Positions 28,203-39,055 of a stretch of 64,000 nucleotides of DNA are shown here, in pieces. The stretch lies in the NCBI GenBank assembly GCA_963848295.1, contig CAWKDB010000010.1:992001-1056000 (forward strand), given 5' to 3'. A program made the translations under genes and the position numbers. A model generated the notes under the pieces. That model saw nothing but the letters and a program-made list of their open reading frames with translations. It was not told the DNA's origin and made no database searches. Position 1 is the first letter of the stretch. The number at the start of each line of letters is the position of its first letter. Source of the stretch: an uncultured delta proteobacterium (GTDB lineage Bacteria > Myxococcota_A > Polyangia > Haliangiales > Haliangiaceae).

Positions 28203-29102
28203 ATGCTAGGACCTGCGCTTCAAAGGATCATCGGTGGTCTCGTTCGTCGGACCTGGCTCGTCGCGCTGATGACGGTCGCGGTGTGCGCGGTATTCACCGC
28301 ACATGCTGTGGCCGCCTTGGTCGAAGCGCGCTACCTGGAACCTACGCTGCGCGGTGCTCCTCCTCGGCCGTCGCAGCAAGCTCCGGTAGCGCGTCCGGCA
28401 CACGCGAAACCAGATGGCAGCGGGCTCGTCGCGCGGAATATCTTCTGCTCGGAGTGCACGGTGTCGTCGGAGCCAGGTCCGGCGGACGCGGCCTATTCAG
28501 GGGCACCGGCCACGCTGATCGCGACCAGCATCGGCATCGACCCGGTGGCGACGGTTCGCGTCCTGGACAGCGGTGTCCAGGGCTCGTGGGGTCTCGGCGA
28601 CGCGATCCCCGGCGTCGGTGCGATCGCCCACATCGGCTTTCGCTCGATCGAAGTGATCGATAGCCACGGCCACCACGGCCGTCTGTCGCTGCTCGACGCG
28701 GCGGCGGCAAGCCCGGCGACCGTCGCGGCGGCAAACGCGACGGCCGCCGATGAGCCGTGGGCCGACAAGATCAAGAAGGTCGACGACTACACGTACGATG
28801 TCGACCGCGATTTGATCCGGGAGCTCGTGTCGGGGTCGGCCAAGACCAGTGGTGCGCGAGCGATGCCGATCATCGATCACGGCGTGGTCAAGGGCGTACG
28901 GTTCGCCGCGATCCGCCCCGGCATGCTCGCGGCCGCGCTCGGGATCAAGAACGGCGACCAGATCGCGACGATCGACGGCGAGCCGATCAAGAGCGCGCAG
29001 CAACTCCTCGATCTCTACGCGAAGCTAGATCAGGTCAACGGGTTCGAGCTCGCGGGCACGCGCGCCGGCAAGCCGCTCGCTCTGAAGTTTCAGCTGCGAT
29101 AG
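28203..29102 (+). CDS. GspC-like protein (TM, HR domain, PDZ)
   Basis: N-terminal TM, RNIFCSEC, ATLIATS, C-terminal PDZ (ALGIKNGDQIATIDG). Confidence 0.8.
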   Translation: MLGPALQRIIGGLVRRTWLVALMTVAVCAVFTAHAVAALVEARYLEPTLRGAPPRPSQQAPVARPAHAKPDGSGLVARNIFCSECTVSSEPGPADAAYSGAPATLIATSIGIDPVATVRVLDSGVQGSWGLGDAIPGVGAIAHIGFRSIEVIDSHGHHGRLSLLDAAAASPATVAAANATAADEPWADKIKKVDDYTYDVDRDLIRELVSGSAKTSGARAMPIIDHGVVKGVRFAAIRPGMLAAALGIKNGDQIATIDGEPIKSAQQLLDLYAKLDQVNGFELAGTRAGKPLALKFQLR

Positions 29103-30341: not shown

Positions 30342-32081
30342 TCAGTTACCGCCGCTCGGGTCGCTGCGACGTGGCCGGCCCTTGCGCGGCCGCGGCATGT
30401 CGAATTGCTCGAGCCGGTTGATCAGAGTCCGGCGCGAAACGCCGAGGAGGGTCGCGGCCTGGCCTTGGTTGCCGCCGGCGCGCTCGAGCGCGTCGAGGAC
30501 TCGAGCGCGTTCATCGACGGCCGTGAGCTCGCCGCGGCTGCGCGGCGGTTGCTCGCTGCTGGCCGCGACCCGCACGTACGTGCCTCGCATCTTTTCGACG
30601 GGAAGGTGCTGGGCCAAGATCGGGCCGTCTCCCGACAGGACTACGGCGCGCTCCATGACGTTGCGGAGCTCGCGGATGTTGCCGGGCCAGCTATAGCCAC
30701 GCAGCAGCGCCAGCGCATCGCTCGTGATCTCCTTCGGTGTGCTGGACGCCCGAGCCGCGGCGCGCGTGGCAAATCGCCGACTGAGTGCGTCGATCTCGCA
30801 CGGCCGCTCGCGCAGCGGCGGAACTACGAGCGTGGCCGCGCTCAAGCGGAAATATAGGTCCTCGCGAAACGTACCCCGGGCGATCGCATCCTCGAGATCG
30901 AGGTTCGTCGCGGCGACGAAGCGAACGCCGGTCTGGAGTGGCTTGAGCCCGCCGACGCGACGCACCTCACCGTCCTCGATGACCCGCAACAGCTTCGCCT
31001 GAAGCGCGAGCGACATCTCGCCGATCTCGTCGAGGAACACGGTTCCTCCGGCGGCGGACTCGAGCAGGCCGGACTTGACTGCGTGGGCCCCGGTGAACGC
31101 GCCGCGCTCGTGACCGAACAGCTCGCTCTCGAGCAGGTTCTCGTTAAGTGCGGCGCAGTTGATCGCGACAAACGGCTTGTCCACGCGCGGCGAAAAGTCG
31201 TGAACCGCACGCGACAGCCTCTCCTTGCCGACGCCGGTCTCACCGAGGATCAAGACCGGCAGATCGGAAGCGGCGATCCGTCGCGCGAGCGCGTACAGAT
31301 CGCGCATGGACTGCTCTGCGATCACGAGGTCATCGCGATCGCTCTCGTCGGTGGTACCGGCGATGGTCGTCATGAGCGCATAGGCGCTCCGGCCGTCGGT
31401 CGGAAAGTGTGCGATGACGTACGAGGCGGTGCCGATGGTCTCCAGCGACGCGACGAGACGCCGCGCGACCAACTCCGCGTGCTCGCGCGGCGTATCGAGT
31501 AGCAGCAGCTCGTGGACGTGCTCGCCGAATTTCGCGATGACGTCCGATTGTCGCAGCGTGGCCAGCAGTGCTTCCACGATCGCGTTGTCCTCCGCACCCG
31601 GCGGCATGCGGACCCCGATCACGGCGAACTGGATGTTGTTGCGGCCCGCGCGGGCACACTCTTCCTCGACGCGGCCCTGAAAGTAGTCGTGTGTGGTGAC
31701 GCGATTCGTCAGTGCCGGCGCGAAGCGCGCTTGGATGATCAACGTCAGCGAGCCGACGGTAACCAATTCGTTGACCTCGAGCTCGAGCGGTTGATGCGGT
31801 GGAATCGCGATGTCTCGGACGGTCGTGCCATTCGAGCTGCCGACGTCTTCGATCGCGATCGTGCGCCCGACGTGCAGCACGGCGTGGCTTCGCGAGATCG
31901 ACTCGTGGTCGATATGGATCGCGTTATCGAGATCACGCCCTATCGTGACACTACCTGATTCGGGCAACGCATGAGTTGCGACAATCTCTGTATCGGCCAT
32001 AACGACGAGGCGGAATCGTCCTCCGACTCGCTGTCTGACCAGGGAGATGGGCACAGTAACTCTGTCCGGACGGCGACCCAC
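30342..32081 (-). CDS. Sigma54-dependent activator: FHA, degenerate GGDEF-like region, AAA+, HTH
   Basis: IGR...SISRSHA...GSSNGT; GETGVGKE; GAFTGA; WPGNIREL. Paralogue of 22975..24681. Confidence 0.93.
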   Translation of the reverse strand: MGRRPDRVTVPISLVRQRVGGRFRLVVMADTEIVATHALPESGSVTIGRDLDNAIHIDHESISRSHAVLHVGRTIAIEDVGSSNGTTVRDIAIPPHQPLELEVNELVTVGSLTLIIQARFAPALTNRVTTHDYFQGRVEEECARAGRNNIQFAVIGVRMPPGAEDNAIVEALLATLRQSDVIAKFGEHVHELLLLDTPREHAELVARRLVASLETIGTASYVIAHFPTDGRSAYALMTTIAGTTDESDRDDLVIAEQSMRDLYALARRIAASDLPVLILGETGVGKERLSRAVHDFSPRVDKPFVAINCAALNENLLESELFGHERGAFTGAHAVKSGLLESAAGGTVFLDEIGEMSLALQAKLLRVIEDGEVRRVGGLKPLQTGVRFVAATNLDLEDAIARGTFREDLYFRLSAATLVVPPLRERPCEIDALSRRFATRAAARASSTPKEITSDALALLRGYSWPGNIRELRNVMERAVVLSGDGPILAQHLPVEKMRGTYVRVAASSEQPPRSRGELTAVDERARVLDALERAGGNQGQAATLLGVSRRTLINRLEQFDMPRPRKGRPRRSDPSGGN

Positions 32082-32110
32082 GGGCCTCAAGGTATCACGC
32101 GCATGTCGAA

Positions 32111-33374
32111 TCAGAGCGCCGATAGGAACGCGACGAGATCCGATTCCTCGGAGGCCGTGAAGCTAAAGCCGAACGTCTCGTAGAAACGCACGACATCGAG
32201 CAGGGTCTGCGCGGATCCGTTGTGGAAGTACGGGGCTCGTGCCGCGAGGCCGCGGAGCGATGGCACCTTGAACTTGCTCATGTCCTTCCACAGGCCGGTG
32301 ATGAGTGCGCGACCCGGATCCGTCGTTTGCACCGTCTCGCTGGTAGCGATGTTCTGGAACGTGTAGAGCGGCAAGTCCGGAGTCCGCACGTCGGCATCAC
32401 TCTGGCCGATCGAGAAGAACGAGCCCTTGAAGCTCGTGCCCGAGTTCTGCGTGCTGTGGCAGCCGCTGCACGGGCCGCCGCCGGTAGTGCGTTCCCGCGT
32501 GTTGAACAGCTCCTGGCCCCGGTAGACGGCCTGCCGGTTCGGGTCCGGACTGGTCTGCCAGGCGTCGAACAGATCAAACGGGGCGGCGACGAGCGCCTGG
32601 CTCGCGATCGCCTCGGCACCGCCGTTCGCGCCACCCTTGTCGAGGAGGCCGCCGCGCCAGACGAACATCTGAGCGTTGAACAGTCCGGTCTCGAACCCGA
32701 CGACCGATGCGTCGACGTCATCGGACAGCGGCTGGGTCGCCTGTGCGTGCCCCAGCGTCGCACCGTCTGCCTGGGCGCCGAGCGCGTCATCCACGGTGGC
32801 GCCTGTGACCCGGCCGTCCCACATGACGGTCGAGATCAGCGCGAGGTTCGCCGCGGGCAGCGGGCGACGGAACAATGACAGCTCGTTCGCCGACGCGTAG
32901 CCGTACGGATCATCGACCGCGATGAGGTCGAACTCCGCGCCGGCCGGTACGCCGATGCCGACTGCGGATCGTTCCGCGGTTCAGCAGCATGTTGTACGCC
33001 GCGCGACGAGCCCTTACCGTCGAGACATCGTCGTTCGGGTTATTCGTACCGTCGACGGGCCGGAAGATCGGATCGAGGCCGGCCGTGAGGTCGAAGCGGA
33101 GACGAACGCTCTCCGCCGACACCGTCCAACCGTCGGTCGGCGTGTGGCAATGACCGCAGGTACGACCGTTGGTCCCGAAGCTCTGGAAGAACTCGTTCCC
33201 GAGGTCGATGGAGCCGGCGGTACTCCAGGTCGTGGACGCGCCGAGCCCGTCGAGGAAGGGCAGGTTGTTCGGGATGCCGTCGTGATGGGTGATGGACTCC
33301 TGCGCCTCCGTGCTGACGGCGTCGGTCGTACACGCAGTGACAAAGAATGTCGCGAACAGCCAGTGGTACTTCAC
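32111..33374 (-). CDS. Di-heme cytochrome c peroxidase/MauG-family lipoprotein; frameshifted at about 32963
   Basis: Lipobox VTAC; CGHCH and CSGCH; MWDGR; FKVPSLRGLAARAPYFHNGS; SD AAGGAGG. Removing one base at 32963 gives ...GTIRVGIGVPAGAEFDLIAVDDPY.... Confidence 0.85.
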
Positions 33375-33607: not shown

Positions 33608-33976
33608 TCAGTTCGCGAGAAAACCGTGAGGCTCGATCCAGCTCGCGAGCGCGGTGCCGTCGCCATACGGCTGCAGACCGGACATGTCGGTGCGATAGAG
33701 CAGGCAATGCAGGATGACGGCGGCCTCGTACGGGCGGATCGTGCTCCCGGGCATCTGCCGCATGCGTTCGATGGTGGCGCTCCATTCGTCGCGGCTCTTG
33801 CGCGCGTCGAGGAACCGATCGCGATCGTGACACGCCGTGCACCGCCGCTCGGTCAGCGAACACGCGTCGCGGATCTCCGGCGGCGCACTCGGCGTGTACA
33901 TCGGCGCGGGTGCCTGGCACGCGACGAGCGCGATCCAGGTACCCACGAGCACGTAGCGTGGTGACAACAACGACAT
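33608..33976 (-). CDS. Monoheme cytochrome c lipoprotein
   Basis: Lipobox LVAC; CTACH; WSATIERMRQM. Confidence 0.8.
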   Translation of the reverse strand: MSLLSPRYVLVGTWIALVACQAPAPMYTPSAPPEIRDACSLTERRCTACHDRDRFLDARKSRDEWSATIERMRQMPGSTIRPYEAAVILHCLLYRTDMSGLQPYGDGTALASWIEPHGFLAN

Positions 33977-33985
33977 CTGATCTAC

Positions 33986-34444
33986 CTAGTTGTCCAGGGC
34001 GCCCTCGGCGATCCAGTCGCGGACGAGCTGAAGCTGCGGGGCCGAGAAATACGGCGGACCGTTGAACGGCATCCGCGAGCCGAACGGTGGCGTCCTGCTG
34101 AGCTTCTGCTCCAGGATGCTGTCGCACGGCCGCGCCGGGATGATGATGTTCGTTCCCGAGTTCACGCCGCCGCGCCGCATCGAGTCGTACGAGCTGAGGT
34201 CGAGCCCGGAGGTCACACGGCCGAGATGGCACGGCGTACAGCCACCCGGCGATTGCAACATCAGCGGGCGGATGTCTGCGGAGAACGAGATCATGACGGC
34301 GGGATTGCTGTCGGTGTTGGTGCACCCGACCGCCTCTTCGTTCTCGGGCTGGGCGTCCACCGGCGCCGCCAGGATCCGGCCGACGTCCGGATCATAGTCG
34401 AGCGTACAGCTCGCCAACACGAGGAGGAGCAAGACTGACTTCAT
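33986..34444 (-). CDS. Monoheme cytochrome c lipoprotein (planctomycete-cytochrome-like)
   Basis: Lipobox LASC; SFSADIRPL...CTPCH...GLDLSSY...RMP...WIAEGA. Confidence 0.85.
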   Translation of the reverse strand: MKSVLLLLVLASCTLDYDPDVGRILAAPVDAQPENEEAVGCTNTDSNPAVMISFSADIRPLMLQSPGGCTPCHLGRVTSGLDLSSYDSMRRGGVNSGTNIIIPARPCDSILEQKLSRTPPFGSRMPFNGPPYFSAPQLQLVRDWIAEGALDN

Positions 34445-35485
34445 GGCGACCCATCCGCGAACTGCAGCTGCAGGTTGTTGGTCGTCGTGTCGACCGTGTA
34501 GCTCGCGACATTGTCGACGTAGTAGCCGGTGATCGCGCCGCCAGAGCTCCGCTTGAATAGGTCGCTGTCGCTCGTGATCGCGCTCGGTGCGATGCCGTCC
34601 GCGAGCCGCACCGTCACGTCGGTCGCGAGCGGCGAGTAGCTCGGGGTCGTGGCCGGAGGCGTTGTCGGGATCGCGTACTGGAACACGAGCTCCGGATCGG
34701 TCGCCGTCGACAGGAGTGGCGGACTTCCGGTCGCGACGCCGGATTGCAGGCCCGAGGCTTGGCCGACCGGCACCATTCCGTTCTTCAACGGCTGGCGCCC
34801 GAGACTGGTGCCGAGCTCGAAGACGTCGACGAGATAGCCGAGCCCATAGACCTGCTGCGTCGGCAACGCCGGATACATGGCAGGATCACCGACCTCGAGC
34901 GTCGTGCCCGGCAGCACGACCGGCATGTTCACCCACGTCCCATCGGGAACCGGATCCCCGACGAGCCCGAGATCGATGGCATCGGACAGCGCCGCCGTCG
35001 TGGTGATTAATTCGCCGGCGTACTTGTCGGTCACCGGCACGTCGGTCACACGCCGGATCGGGCTGTAGCGAACATCGCCGCAGATCGTATCGATGAGTGG
35101 CGGATGAGTTGGCAGCGGTGTGAAGACGCCGGACGTGTCGAGCGTACCGAACACATACAGAGGCGCCAGGACCGCGATCGTCCCCTCCATCGGGGACGGG
35201 ACCGAAGCTCCAGTACTCCACCGTCGCGCCGCCGGACTTGCCGAGCGTGCGCGTGACGACGCCGCCGCTGGTCATCAGCGCGGCATCGTTCAAGCCGTCG
35301 TTGATCTGGATCTGGATCAGCAACTCCGAGTTCTCCGAGATGCTCGGCACCACCGTCCCGGGTGGCAGGATGTTCGTCGATGCCAGTGCGTCGGAGCTAG
35401 CATCTGCAGGAGTGTCCGAAACGAGTGGGTGGAGGTGGCAGCCTGCGAGGGAGACGACGACGACGAAATACTTGGTAATCATCAT
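34441..35485 (-). CDS. Lipoprotein with duplicated YSP motif (DUF7482-like); frameshifted at 35192-35195
   Basis: Lipobox LAGC. Removing one base from the G4 run joins VEYWSFGPVP to MEGTIAVLAP. Motifs YSPIRRVTDV, VNMPVV, YSPLATDVTV. Confidence 0.75.
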
Positions 35486-35496
35486 GACTGTTCTCC

Positions 35497-36867
35497 TCAG
35501 AAAGGACCTGCGAGCCCGACGTGGATGACGTCTTCGTCCTGGAAGTCCGAGAAGTCGTAGCGTTCGTAGCTAAGCTTGATGCGAATCGACCGCGCGACCG
35601 CGATCGCCAGCGCGACGGTGTGGCGGACGACCTCGCTGTCCGATCGCAAGGGGCTACTCTGGATGACGTTGCCGCGGCGTCTCATCCCATCCTCGCGCCA
35701 CACGACCGTTACCCGCGAGGTGATCGGAGCCTCGACCTCGACGTAGCCGCCGTCCTTGACGAACCACGGGTCGTAGACGCCGTCCTTGCCGGGGCCGTAC
35801 TTGAACTCGCTGGCCGGGTCGTCTCCCATGTCCATCTTGGTGCGGCGATTCAGGTACTCCGCTCGGAGGAACACGTCCTTGATTCGCAGCACGAAGTGCC
35901 CGCCGTAGATCCGGAATGGGAGCTCGTGGTCGGGATCGTAGGTGCCGCCCATGCCGGAGACACCTACGGTCGCACTTACCTTGCCGGAGGTGTAACTGGC
36001 GACGAGCTGACCTCCGAGCACCGGACGAGAGTTGTTATCTATGTAATAGCTGTCACCAGATCTGGACAGCTTGAAGTCGAAATCAACAGGATCGGATGCC
36101 GCGCGCGGGCCGCCCATCGCATATACCGCGTACGACGTCTGCACGTGGTCACCGAAATAGTGAGTGCCGTTGATCTCGATCCCGTTGTCGACCCACGGCG
36201 CCGGCAGGACGCCCTCATTCCATTCGGTCATCCGCACCATGCGCCCCATGTCGTAGATCAGCGGGGCGTCGCTCGTGCGGTGGTTCGCGGGATCGTGACG
36301 CAATGGGTAGTCACCGAACGCCGGGGTGAACCGACCAACGCGAACGTCGAGTTCGTCGACCGCGCGCACATCGAAGTAGGCCATGCCGGTTTCGAACCCA
36401 TGGCACGCGTAGCAGACCTTCACACTCGCGCTGACGTGGCTGTTGAAGTCCATCGCGAGCTTTAGCGACACCTCGGTCGTTGCACCGTCGAGCGCGACGT
36501 CCCGACCCGTCTTCTCCGTCGGGATCGCCATGTAATCGAGCTGGATCGAGCCAGCGAAGTTGCGTTGAAAGCCGATTGCTTCCGCGGCACCGGTTTGTCT
36601 GGCCGCGGCGGCGGCGCCGCCGGCGCTGTCTGATCGGTCGGCGGAGCAGGCAGGGGCGGCGGTGCTGGATTCGCCGGCTGCGATCGATCAGCCGGTGGTG
36701 CTTGGTCCGGCGGCGTAGTTGGATTCGGCGGTGCGTCCGGCGTTGGTGTCGCTGCGGGGATAGCGTTGCTGCTGCGGCGCCGGCACGGGAGCGGGCTGCG
36801 CGAGCGCAGCGGACAGCACGACCAGTTCGGCGACGCTTGCAAACAAAGCAAAGCGAAAGATCCTCAT
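35497..36867 (-). CDS. Predicted outer-membrane beta-barrel with a CxxCH motif; N-terminal region interrupted
   Basis: Signal peptide MRIFRF...AALA, Pro-rich linker, amphipathic strands (GSIQLDY, VRVGRFTPAFG, FLRAEY), C-terminal Phe. CYACH at 36400-36414. ATG 36867 is in frame with the 36531 ORF but interrupted by a stop at 36688. Confidence 0.78.
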
Positions 36868-37006: not shown

Positions 37007-39055
37007 GTGCTTTGCGAGAACGTTGTGTCGAGCGCCGTCGAGCGCGCGCTATACTCGTCGAACAAATGGTGGGTACTTCTAGCGCAGAAGACTGATCCGC
37101 TCGTCGGATCGAAATTGGGCAAGGACTACCTAGTCCTCGAGCGAATCGGCGTAGGCGGCATGGCGGTCGTCTATCTCGTCGAGCATCAGACCCTGCTCAA
37201 GCAGTTCGCTGCGAAGGTGCTCTCGAGTCAGCACGCGTCGAGCGCCGAAGCACGCGCGCGCTTCACACAAGAGGCGCACGCTGCATCGCAGCTCGATCAC
37301 GAGAACATCGTCACGATCTCCGACTTCGGGCTCACGACGGATAGTCGACCGTACTTCGTGATGGAGCTCCTGCGCGGCAAGACGCTCGCCGATCGTCTCG
37401 ACGAAGGCCCGATGACCCTCGAAGAGGTCGTCGCGGTGAGCGTGCCAGTCGCGCGTGCACTCGCGCATGCGCACGCGGAAGGGATCATCCATCGCGACGT
37501 CAAGCCCGAGAACATCTTCCTCGTCCAGCGCAGCCAAGGACGCTGGGGCGTGAAGGTCCTCGACTTCGGCATCGCAAAGGTGTCGCTCAGCAACGACCGC
37601 ATGACGAAGACCGGCGAAGCGCTCGGCAGTCCGATGTTCATGTCGCCCGAAGCATGTCGCGGTGATGAGGTCGACCAACGCGCCGACGTCTATTCGTTCG
37701 GCATCGTCCTCTACTTGATGCTCGCGGGACGCGTGCCGTTCTCCGACGAGAATCTTCTGAAGGTTCTCCAAATGCAGGTCATGGCGCCCCTGCCGCTTCC
37801 GACCTCGTTCAACCCCGACCTTCCGGCCGAGCTCGAGCACGTCCTCATTCGCGCCCTGTTCAAGGATCCGAACGACCGTTACGCGACGATGGAAGAATTC
37901 CTGTTCACTCTCGAGGCCGCGCTGCCCGATGGCGCGGACGCGTTGTTGATCCAGGGCCAGTTCGGCACGCACACCACGCCGTTCCCCGGCACGCTCGAGC
38001 GTCTTCGCAACGCGCGCGCGTCGTCGAAGCCGCCGTTCGGCGCGACCGGCGAGCACGAGATTTCGCCGGCGTCCTCGCAAACCGCGGTGCGGGCCACGTC
38101 GCTGCCGCTCGCGCCGGCCAAGAAACGCGGGCGCGCAGCGCTCGTCGTGGGAGCGCTGGTCACGCTCGGCGCGGCCGGCGCAGCGGCGTATGTCTGGCAG
38201 AGCTCGACGACAGAAACGACCGCTGCCGACAAGCGAGTGGCCGCCCCGGTTCCGACTCCGTCACGGGTGGCGACGGCGGCGGTCACCGATCAGCCTGCGC
38301 GGGTCGAGCTCCCGCCGGTCGATCCGCCGGCCCCGGTCAAGACGGCCCCGGTCGAGACGGCCCCGACCGAGACGCCCGCCCCGACCGAGACGGCCCCGCC
38401 GGCGGCCGCGATCGCGACGAGCTCCGTGAGGGACACGAAGGCTTCGAAGACCAGGCATCCAGCGCCCGCACGACGAGGTACTCGCGCCTCGGTGACCACC
38501 AGGTCTACCGCCACCAAGTCGCGGCCCGCACCGTCGACGACACCGGCCGTGGCCGCCATAGCAGAGCCCGAGCCGGATCCAGAAACGCCGGCCGTTGTCG
38601 CGACGACGCCGCCGAAGGTCGAGACACCCGCGCCGACGGTTCGCGGCGTGCCCGCGCCCCCGACGCCACCGCCCGCCCCGAGACCAGCCCCGGTATTGAA
38701 GCCGGCCCCGGTTGTTGTCGGATCGATGGACGCGATGCCGGCGATCGCCACCCTCGATGTCAACGGGCCTCTCCCGGCGTCGGTCGTGCGGCGTGGCGTC
38801 GAGCGCGTGCTCCCTGCCCTGCGCGCGTGCTACCGCACCGCCGCGGCCGCGCAGAAGAAGACGCCTGCGCTCAACGTGTCGCTAACCTTCGAGGTCGACG
38901 AGAACAGCGCCGCCACGAACGTGGCCGGCGCCGGTACGAAATTCGGTTCGCTTTCATCCTGCACGAGGAGCGCGATCGGGGAGATCCAGACGCAACAGGC
39001 GCCCGATGTCGGCATCGCGCAAGTCGGTCTCACGATCCGGTTCACGCCGATCTGA
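37007..39055 (+). CDS. Membrane Ser/Thr kinase with Pro-rich linker and C-terminal AgmX/TonB-C-like domain
   Basis: GGMAVVY, HRDVKPEN, DFG; TM ALVVGALVTLG; ALRACYR...LSSCTRSAI. Start uncertain. Confidence 0.9.
   Translation: MLCENVVSSAVERALYSSNKWWVLLAQKTDPLVGSKLGKDYLVLERIGVGGMAVVYLVEHQTLLKQFAAKVLSSQHASSAEARARFTQEAHAASQLDHENIVTISDFGLTTDSRPYFVMELLRGKTLADRLDEGPMTLEEVVAVSVPVARALAHAHAEGIIHRDVKPENIFLVQRSQGRWGVKVLDFGIAKVSLSNDRMTKTGEALGSPMFMSPEACRGDEVDQRADVYSFGIVLYLMLAGRVPFSDENLLKVLQMQVMAPLPLPTSFNPDLPAELEHVLIRALFKDPNDRYATMEEFLFTLEAALPDGADALLIQGQFGTHTTPFPGTLERLRNARASSKPPFGATGEHEISPASSQTAVRATSLPLAPAKKRGRAALVVGALVTLGAAGAAAYVWQSSTTETTAADKRVAAPVPTPSRVATAAVTDQPARVELPPVDPPAPVKTAPVETAPTETPAPTETAPPAAAIATSSVRDTKASKTRHPAPARRGTRASVTTRSTATKSRPAPSTTPAVAAIAEPEPDPETPAVVATTPPKVETPAPTVRGVPAPPTPPPAPRPAPVLKPAPVVVGSMDAMPAIATLDVNGPLPASVVRRGVERVLPALRACYRTAAAAQKKTPALNVSLTFEVDENSAATNVAGAGTKFGSLSSCTRSAIGEIQTQQAPDVGIAQVGLTIRFTPI

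Follow-up and report, generated by a model that had tools for sequence, protein, structure and literature searches.

Within a 64,000-nucleotide stretch of DNA (the window) from an uncultured delta proteobacterium of the Haliangiaceae (contig CAWKDB010000010.1, positions 992,001 to 1,056,000), our analysis reveals a gene cluster for a system that is real, widespread and conserved, and for whose core part, an outer-membrane (OM) porin predicted to be its own cytochrome, we found no precedent. Four tightly packed minus-strand genes, separated by 11 nt (A-B), a 4-nt ATGA overlap (B-C) and 9 nt (C-D), encode this β-barrel (A), a heme-free lipoprotein (B), and two monoheme cytochrome lipoproteins (C and D). 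An earlier note, made from the DNA letters alone, had placed these genes, gaps and CxxCH heme-attachment motifs where we find them, and had read B as a repeat lipoprotein, as is borne out by the homology between its two halves (hhalign probability 93.9, E 1.6e-7). Ten CxxCH strings occur in the whole window over six frames, and five of these belong to the reading frames of A, C, D and downstream gene E (Table 1). Lipoboxes are apparent by eye in B (LAGC), C (LASC) and D (LVAC), and the lipobox Cys is retained in 104/108 C rows (3 gaps, 1 Ala) and 77/79 D rows. A sigma-70 promoter or terminator was looked for at the cluster and none was found. The source genome of the window (G000) is 85% complete and comprises 11 contigs.

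Conservation of the heme-motif barrel and its linkage to cytochrome genes

That porin A would itself carry a c-type heme is predicted from its sequence: a CxxCH motif in an exported protein, encoded by a host with genes for heme-c maturation (here CcmE and three PF01578 proteins), is the combination by which a c-type cytochrome is recognized. The conservation of this motif, on which the proposal in the earlier note depended, holds throughout the family, with CxxCH present in all 121 close barrel proteins (119 relatives and two window-derived sequences), in 119/119 barrel matches of the Anaeromyxobacter clade, and in 117/120 of the planctomycete clade, where the three exceptions start downstream of the motif. 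The motif His (H55 in barrel numbering) is invariant across 37 barrel sequences, down to 25% identity; so too is a Met of loop 3, found as Met106 in 126/126 rows and as M263 in 102/102 rows of the fusion alignment. Both CxxCH and the loop-3 Met are retained from Haliangiales to Anaeromyxobacter and Planctomycetota. The 80/80 CxxCH count from the 80-locus scan described below is biased and non-independent, as the pattern searched with in that scan itself contained the motif.

In a quick tree of 85 barrels, the 68 heme-bearing members fall on one side of a branch and the 17 heme-free members on the other (support 79, midpoint root), a division that is compatible with, but does not establish, a single origin of the heme barrels. 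A sister clade displays CxxH plus a His in place of CxxCH plus Met (L198:3513-4934, L199:7721-8950, L194:8043-9284); in L198 and L199 the barrel gene adjoins one for a hexaheme protein, after which come C- and D-like genes, and this arrangement may represent a conduit of intermediate form. Automatic annotation labels an Anaeromyxobacter member "cytochrome c domain-containing" (UniProt) and an A. oryzae member "porin" (NCBI).

Homologs of the barrel numbered 1,506 in the first search, with 248 relatives in the genome collection, and the names on the homologs are those of Kofleriaceae/Haliangiales and Myxococcota. Gene neighborhoods were compared in two sets. The first comprises the best 80 of the 248 genomic relatives, i.e., loci that are kin, many of them truncated and some possibly duplicating the homolog set; their gene content is ABCD in 50, ABCDE in 6, ABC in 9, AC in 6 and ACD in 5, with ABD, AB, AD and A represented by one locus each. 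All four genes A to D are thus found together in 56/80 loci, in three orders (ABCD, DABC and BCDA), and since gene order varies, the linkage withstands rearrangement. For the second set, 401 genomes of the phylum were drawn, of which 79 match the barrel at E<=1e-8 and about 37 at E<1e-60; 40 strong and 20 weak places were taken, 34 of them with a heme barrel. Across Myxococcota families, the neighbors of these 34 heme barrels include C in 29 cases, D in 14, B in 11 and E in one, whereas the 20 weak, heme-free barrel relatives have C in none and D-like domains in two. A and C together make up the core of the system; D is a frequent member, B an optional one, and E is incidental to it. The synteny anticipated by the earlier note is thereby upheld, and its four-gene operon is genuine as a linkage but not obligate as a unit. 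No barrel more than about 41% identical to the Anaeromyxobacter proteins was present among the loci taken from the 400-genome draw. At L217:4200-6648 and L219:4168-6061, a distant heme-free barrel is encoded together with a small diheme protein that includes a D-like domain.

The AlphaFold2 model of the A barrel (137-sequence alignment; pLDDT 84.3, pTM 0.84) has 16 strands, and its best structural match is OprP (2o4v; Z 27.3, rmsd 2.7, 297 residues aligned, 15% identity), followed by other general porins. By sequence, A scores 14.8 against PF07396, under the cut-off of 20.9, and 5/37 family members match PF07396 at E<=0.01. At this same threshold, no Pfam/NCBIfam family was found for the window barrel, and no NCBIfam porin family among the 37 members; NCBIfam contains Geobacter ExtI-type models. 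A PDB sequence search with the barrel profile gave no match at E<=1, and ESM Atlas returned only unnamed Myxococcota clusters plus weak Porin_O_P. For neither A nor the fusion protein modeled below is a cytochrome-porin among the top-listed fold matches, which are ordinary porins and other barrels, and a family beyond these top matches could still exist.

In the model, C51 closes strand 3 (residues 44-52), and C54 and H55 belong to the short loop leading into strand 4 (58-69). Met106 is part of the long loop 3 (80-125); in 16-strand porins, this loop is folded into the pore. From the alternation of residues along strand 3, K49 and C51 would be on the lumen side. Given that both porin termini are periplasmic in standard topology (PMC8406198; this and the other papers cited by accession are drawn upon for the available portions of their texts), the C51/C54/H55 hairpin would correspond to extracellular loop 2, putting the CxxCH of A at the outer rim.

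Table 1. Window positions of the cluster genes and of sites within them
Feature	Position	Strand	Remarks
Gene A (heme barrel)	35497..36867	-	ATG 36867, TGA ending 35497; signal peptide (by eye), Pro-rich linker, predicted 16-strand OprP-like porin
Barrel part of gene A	35500-36564	-	Downstream of Pro-rich linker
CYACH heme-attachment motif of A	36400..36414	-	End of barrel strand 3/loop 2; C51, C54, H55 of barrel
Met106 of A, loop 3 (PLxYxMG)	36247..36249	-	Candidate distal heme ligand
Gene B	34441..35485	-	ATG 35485; heme-free lipoprotein, two diverged DUF7482-like repeats; accessory subunit
Gene C	33986..34444	-	Monoheme lipoprotein, CTPCH 34240-34226, invariant Met125; predicted surface side
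Gene D	33608..33976	-	Monoheme lipoprotein, CTACH 33841-33827, invariant Met72; predicted periplasmic side
Gene E	32111..33374	-	Downstream diheme CCP/MauG-like lipoprotein, CGHCH 33158, CSGCH 32470; adjoins cluster, not core

Partner proteins and fusion architectures

Partner C (152 aa) has a single heme motif, and its profile finds FoxE (5MAB, E 1.6e-16) as the best solved match, followed by a cytochrome c555 construct and hydrazine synthase alpha. Both FoxE domains are matched, including the RMP Met in the second. In FoxE, the first-domain heme takes its Met ligand from near the C-terminus (PMC10654088), and C may therefore need either dimerization or its own Met. In 22/77 C proteins (loci L039-L118), the motif is contracted to CxCH (GCSCH, GCGCH) while Met125 is kept, examples being L039:10115-10531, L043:5621-6079 and L054:9821-10261; such proteins would escape standard CxxCH screens. 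A CKCH motif is known to be functional in Kuenenia (PMC7096707).

Partner D has CxxCH in 65/65 cases along with its invariant Met, and its profile matches the QH-AmDH heme domain (1JJU), chlorobial cytochrome c (3A9F) and SorB (2BLF), all of which are His/Met carriers. Tandem duplicates of D occur, either as two genes (L039:10531-11278, L053:10536-11283) or as two domains (L037:7753-8445), echoing the two-D planctomycete fusions described below. B matches DUF7482 weakly, below the cut-off; inspection of its conservation revealed no heme motif and no recognizable conserved catalytic set, and ESM Atlas provided sub-0.9 leads only. G000 encodes another protein with a DUF7482 stretch resembling B (L229:6026-6988, C10 near 1.976 Mb; see also L230).

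Fusions provide an indication of where these partners are placed. Distant barrel matches (317 representatives at E<=1e-3) include D-barrel fusions, labeled Planctomycetota by NCBI where named: in 110/120 planctomycete-clade proteins, a D-type domain stands N-terminal to the barrel and brings further CxxCH, with 73 proteins having one D and two CxxCH, 34 having two D and three CxxCH, and 3 having one detected D and three CxxCH. As the N-terminal domain of a porin is periplasmic, D would be on the inner face. The AlphaFold2 model of one such fusion has a pTM of 0.83 over 509 residues; this exceeds 0.70-0.74, a rough bound for an undocked domain, and thus suggests that D holds a defined position relative to the barrel. 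No separate C or B genes were found at 43 planctomycete-type metagenome loci, many of whose contigs are short. At nine planctomycete-type loci, the D-barrel fusion is followed by a homologous gene (e.g., L123:9389-10969, L125:2331-4145); four of the genes after the fusion were scanned and are BBP7 (PF07585) barrels.

At the three other loci of the scan that yielded these 43, the fused partner is C. In L163 and L164, MtrC/MtrF heme domains (PF22113, E 7.6e-36 and 1.1e-40) are joined to a terminal C-type domain in one lipoprotein with 10-11 CxxCH; the heme barrel comes next, and then a D protein without a lipobox. The same arrangement is present, truncated, at L162. MtrC-family proteins are surface-exposed cytochromes, and the fusion of C to one of them at these three related loci thus points to C being outside. 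The barrels of L162-L164 cluster in the tree with ABC80694.1, a homolog in A. dehalogenans 2CP-C, to which they show 55-61% identity. The barrel gene is also found in 2CP-1, in strain K and in A. oryzae, and the Anaeromyxobacter gene neighborhood would be expected to resemble that of the metagenome loci.

The OM heme conduit advanced in the earlier note, distinct from MtrAB, Pcc and Cyc2, survives in outline, with synteny and motifs upheld, with D-barrel and MtrC-C fusions supporting a physical coupling of porin and cytochromes, and with three details corrected. Its all-monoheme architecture is correct for the source genome but does not extend to the planctomycete fusions, which have two or three hemes, nor to the Anaeromyxobacter-clade version with its decaheme.

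As assembled, gene A contains an in-frame TGA (36690-36688) between two compensating frameshifts in the Pro-rich linker, and frameshifts are also present in B (near 35190) and E (near 32965). These breaks are probably assembly indels, with pseudogene decay of the cluster being unlikely, since (i) close relatives of the cluster genes are intact, (ii) split genes are in excess in G000 (4/30 testable) relative to the loci of relatives (1/90), (iii) pairwise dN/dS is about 0.2-0.5 for the cluster genes, and (iv) each protein deviates at only 1-2 conserved columns. Against assembly error, 3/5 cluster genes are affected, versus 2/27 of the remaining tested genes.

A separate cluster in G000 (L228, C10:4192000-4210000) contains genes for an MtrC-family decaheme lipoprotein of 737 aa and a NapC/NirT-like protein, together with a second open reading frame (ORF) of 10 hemes and one of 27 hemes; near C10:440 kb there are additional ORFs with 28 and 23 hemes. 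A type II secretion GspC (NF041515, above cut-off) is encoded in the window at 28203-29102 (+), about 4.5 kb from the cluster. Shewanella MtrC is exported by type II secretion.

Proposed electron transfer through the barrel and competing explanations

Based on these sequences and structure models, we propose, with somewhat better than even confidence, a chain leading from surface-located C to a barrel heme ligated by His55 and Met106 in the outer vestibule, and from there to periplasmic D. The Ccm system, present in G000, would attach the heme while A is still unfolded in the periplasm, ahead of barrel insertion into the membrane. A lumen-facing C51 would then position the heme in the outer vestibule, with its ligands provided by His55 and by the Met106 of an infolded loop 3. 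D would plug the periplasmic mouth of the barrel, as is thought for the cytochrome domain of Cyc2, and C, or an MtrC-C fusion, would dock on the outer face, with B serving as an accessory scaffold or a substrate-binding lipoprotein. Electron flow would likely, by a modest lean, be inward, with reduced donors outside the cell (e.g., Fe(II), humics or minerals) as the source: the three hemes all look His/Met-ligated, and C is kin to the Fe(II) oxidase FoxE, suggesting high potentials. High-potential His/Met hemes are downhill from bis-His hemes of the MtrC type. More broadly, in a reading to which we give slightly less than an even chance, the system could constitute a third class of conduit, one for extracellular electron uptake, in which the porin is itself a cytochrome and a His/Met wall heme replaces the MtrA wire as a modular socket, occupied by FoxE-like C or an MtrC-C fusion outside and by one or two D hemes inside.

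Several points weigh against this proposal. The heme on the barrel is a prediction, and three monohemes may fail to span the membrane within tunneling range. In one alignment (A7), the invariance of C51, C54 and H55 is partly circular, as its locus rows were filtered for the motif. The surface location of C derives from three fusion loci of one clade, and in the window C and D are both lipoproteins that could both face the periplasm. C is absent at 5/34 heme barrels, two of which have full flanks (L191, L192), and its absence from the planctomycete-type loci implies that those barrels would work without a surface partner. The C domain is moreover promiscuous, with two other C-like domains in G000 remote from any heme barrel. 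As for direction, ligands do not fix potential, a Cyc2 having been measured at -130 mV (PMC13692758).

One alternative is a substrate-entry redox pore akin to Cyc2 or FoxE, in which a small electron donor or acceptor, such as Fe(II), a chelated metal or a quinone, would pass into the vestibule and react with the barrel heme, with C and D being carriers that face the periplasm and with no partner at the surface. We regard this as unlikely. The fusion of C to a lipoprotein of the surface-exposed MtrC family in L162-L164 argues against it, while FoxE, the nearest solved relative of C, is periplasmic, and no separate C was found with the planctomycete-type fusions. Conserved E31, K35, K49, R78, R89 and R168, if lumen-facing, could line a selective pore, but the invariant Lys/Arg are equally consistent with heme propionate binding. 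The barrel fold is also the one predicted for Cyc2 (PMC8406198).

A heme-free barrel is improbable. In such a system, the CxxCH would form a disulfide or a Cu/Zn site gating an OprP-like nutrient channel, with the cytochromes having a separate periplasmic role. The location of the motif in a tight β-hairpin is unusual for heme c, and the CxxH plus His of the sister clade suggests that another cofactor is possible; however, the CxxCH spacing is kept exactly across phyla, as are an invariant His and a distant, likewise invariant Met, and it is the motif-bearing barrels that adjoin or are fused to cytochromes, unlike the 20 weak heme-free relatives. About equally improbable is a redox or metal sensor signaling via the Ser/Thr kinase (37007-39055) or the FHA/sigma-54 regulator (30342-32090). 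Both flank the cluster here and in its nearest relatives, but kinases and sigma-54 regulators are plentiful in the window, no signaling domain was noticed on A to D, and no regulator is among the most recurrent neighbor clusters at planctomycete-type loci (Haliangiales-type neighbors being outside this clustering). A dedicated electron feed for the diheme enzyme E, suggested in the earlier note, has at best a very slight chance and is not supported as a general function: E lies behind D on the same strand in the window and in 6 close relatives, but is missing from 74/80 and 33/34 loci (some contigs being truncated) and is set apart by a 233-nt gap and its own ribosome-binding site.

Should electrons indeed pass via the barrel heme, the implications would be both mechanistic and practical. 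Described conduits employ either a multiheme wire through a heme-free barrel or, in Cyc2, one heme domain on the periplasmic side, the latter leaving the rest of the crossing unexplained; with a heme built into the barrel wall and small cytochromes flanking it on either side, the present system would offer a minimal alternative. Haliangiales, other Myxococcota, Anaeromyxobacter and Planctomycetota would thereby gain a route for extracellular electron uptake outside the conduit families compared here. The barrel family is large, and the window barrel falls in no Pfam/NCBIfam family at E<=0.01; the family would supply a marker of extracellular electron transfer in Myxococcota and Planctomycetota. 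Cultured, metal-reducing Anaeromyxobacter offers a host for a direct test, and the system could serve as a compact component in connecting cells with electrodes.

Comparison with known porins and electron conduits

The best structural match of A is with the phosphate-selective porins OprP/OprO (PF07396; 2O4V, 4RJW), for which we know of no heme or cytochrome partners. Among cytochromes, C is homologous to each domain of FoxE, the diheme Fe(II) oxidase of Rhodobacter ferrooxidans (5MAB), the hemes of which are likewise His/Met-ligated (PMC10654088); in contrast to FoxE, C has one domain and one heme, is a lipoprotein, and is linked to a porin rather than to foxYZ.

Full-text literature searches, with supplements and most subscription papers outside their coverage, returned no title or abstract start describing a heme-barrel system, nor is one described in the available portions of 10.1101/2023.01.26.525709, PMC8788666, PMC13322032, 10.1101/2021.03.22.436458 and PMC13741234. 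Two candidate matches were rejected: Sideroxydans Slit_1321-1324 has a cytochrome b and no porin, and the Methylobacter cluster is of the MtrAB type.

In the Geobacter Pcc (OmbB-OmaB-OmcB) and PCC3/PCC4 systems too, porin and cytochrome genes are clustered and have a proposed or demonstrated function in electron transfer across the OM, but there the porins are paired with cytochromes of 4 to 14 or more hemes (PMC4245776, PMC5566968). A periplasmic 8- to 14-heme cytochrome partner marks Pcc (PMC4245776), whereas the partners here are monoheme C and D. The pcc cluster described in Anaeromyxobacter is a two-gene unit of porin and 12-14-heme cytochrome (Adeh_3392), unlike the layout of the barrel cluster.

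MtrCAB, MtoAB and PioAB have a porin with cytochromes on both faces, as is proposed for the present system, the Anaeromyxobacter-clade version of which also includes an MtrC-family decaheme. Their barrel, however, is a large MtrB sheath around decaheme MtrA, while A is small and would bear its own heme. No MtrB/PioB (PF11854) was detected among 37 barrel members at E<=0.01, nor in the 85% complete G000. As for an adjacent MtrA-type decaheme, the window has no multiheme protein and the 34 heme-barrel loci have none with at least 8 hemes; the decaheme of L162-L164 is of MtrC type, not MtrA type.

Cyc2 is also similar to the present system, as both it and A are predicted to be 16-strand OprO/OprP-like barrels with a c-type heme (PMC8406198, Keffer et al. 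2021), and the planctomycete D-barrel fusions likewise have an N-terminal cytochrome domain followed by a barrel. The single CXXCH of Cyc2 is located in its N-terminal domain together with AXPXFAR[Q/K][T/Y] (PMC8406198), a motif found in 0/450 CxxCH-bearing proteins of the present family. In A, by contrast, the heme motif is inside the barrel, after three strands, with the fusions having two to three hemes and the system as a whole including the separate lipoproteins C, D and B.

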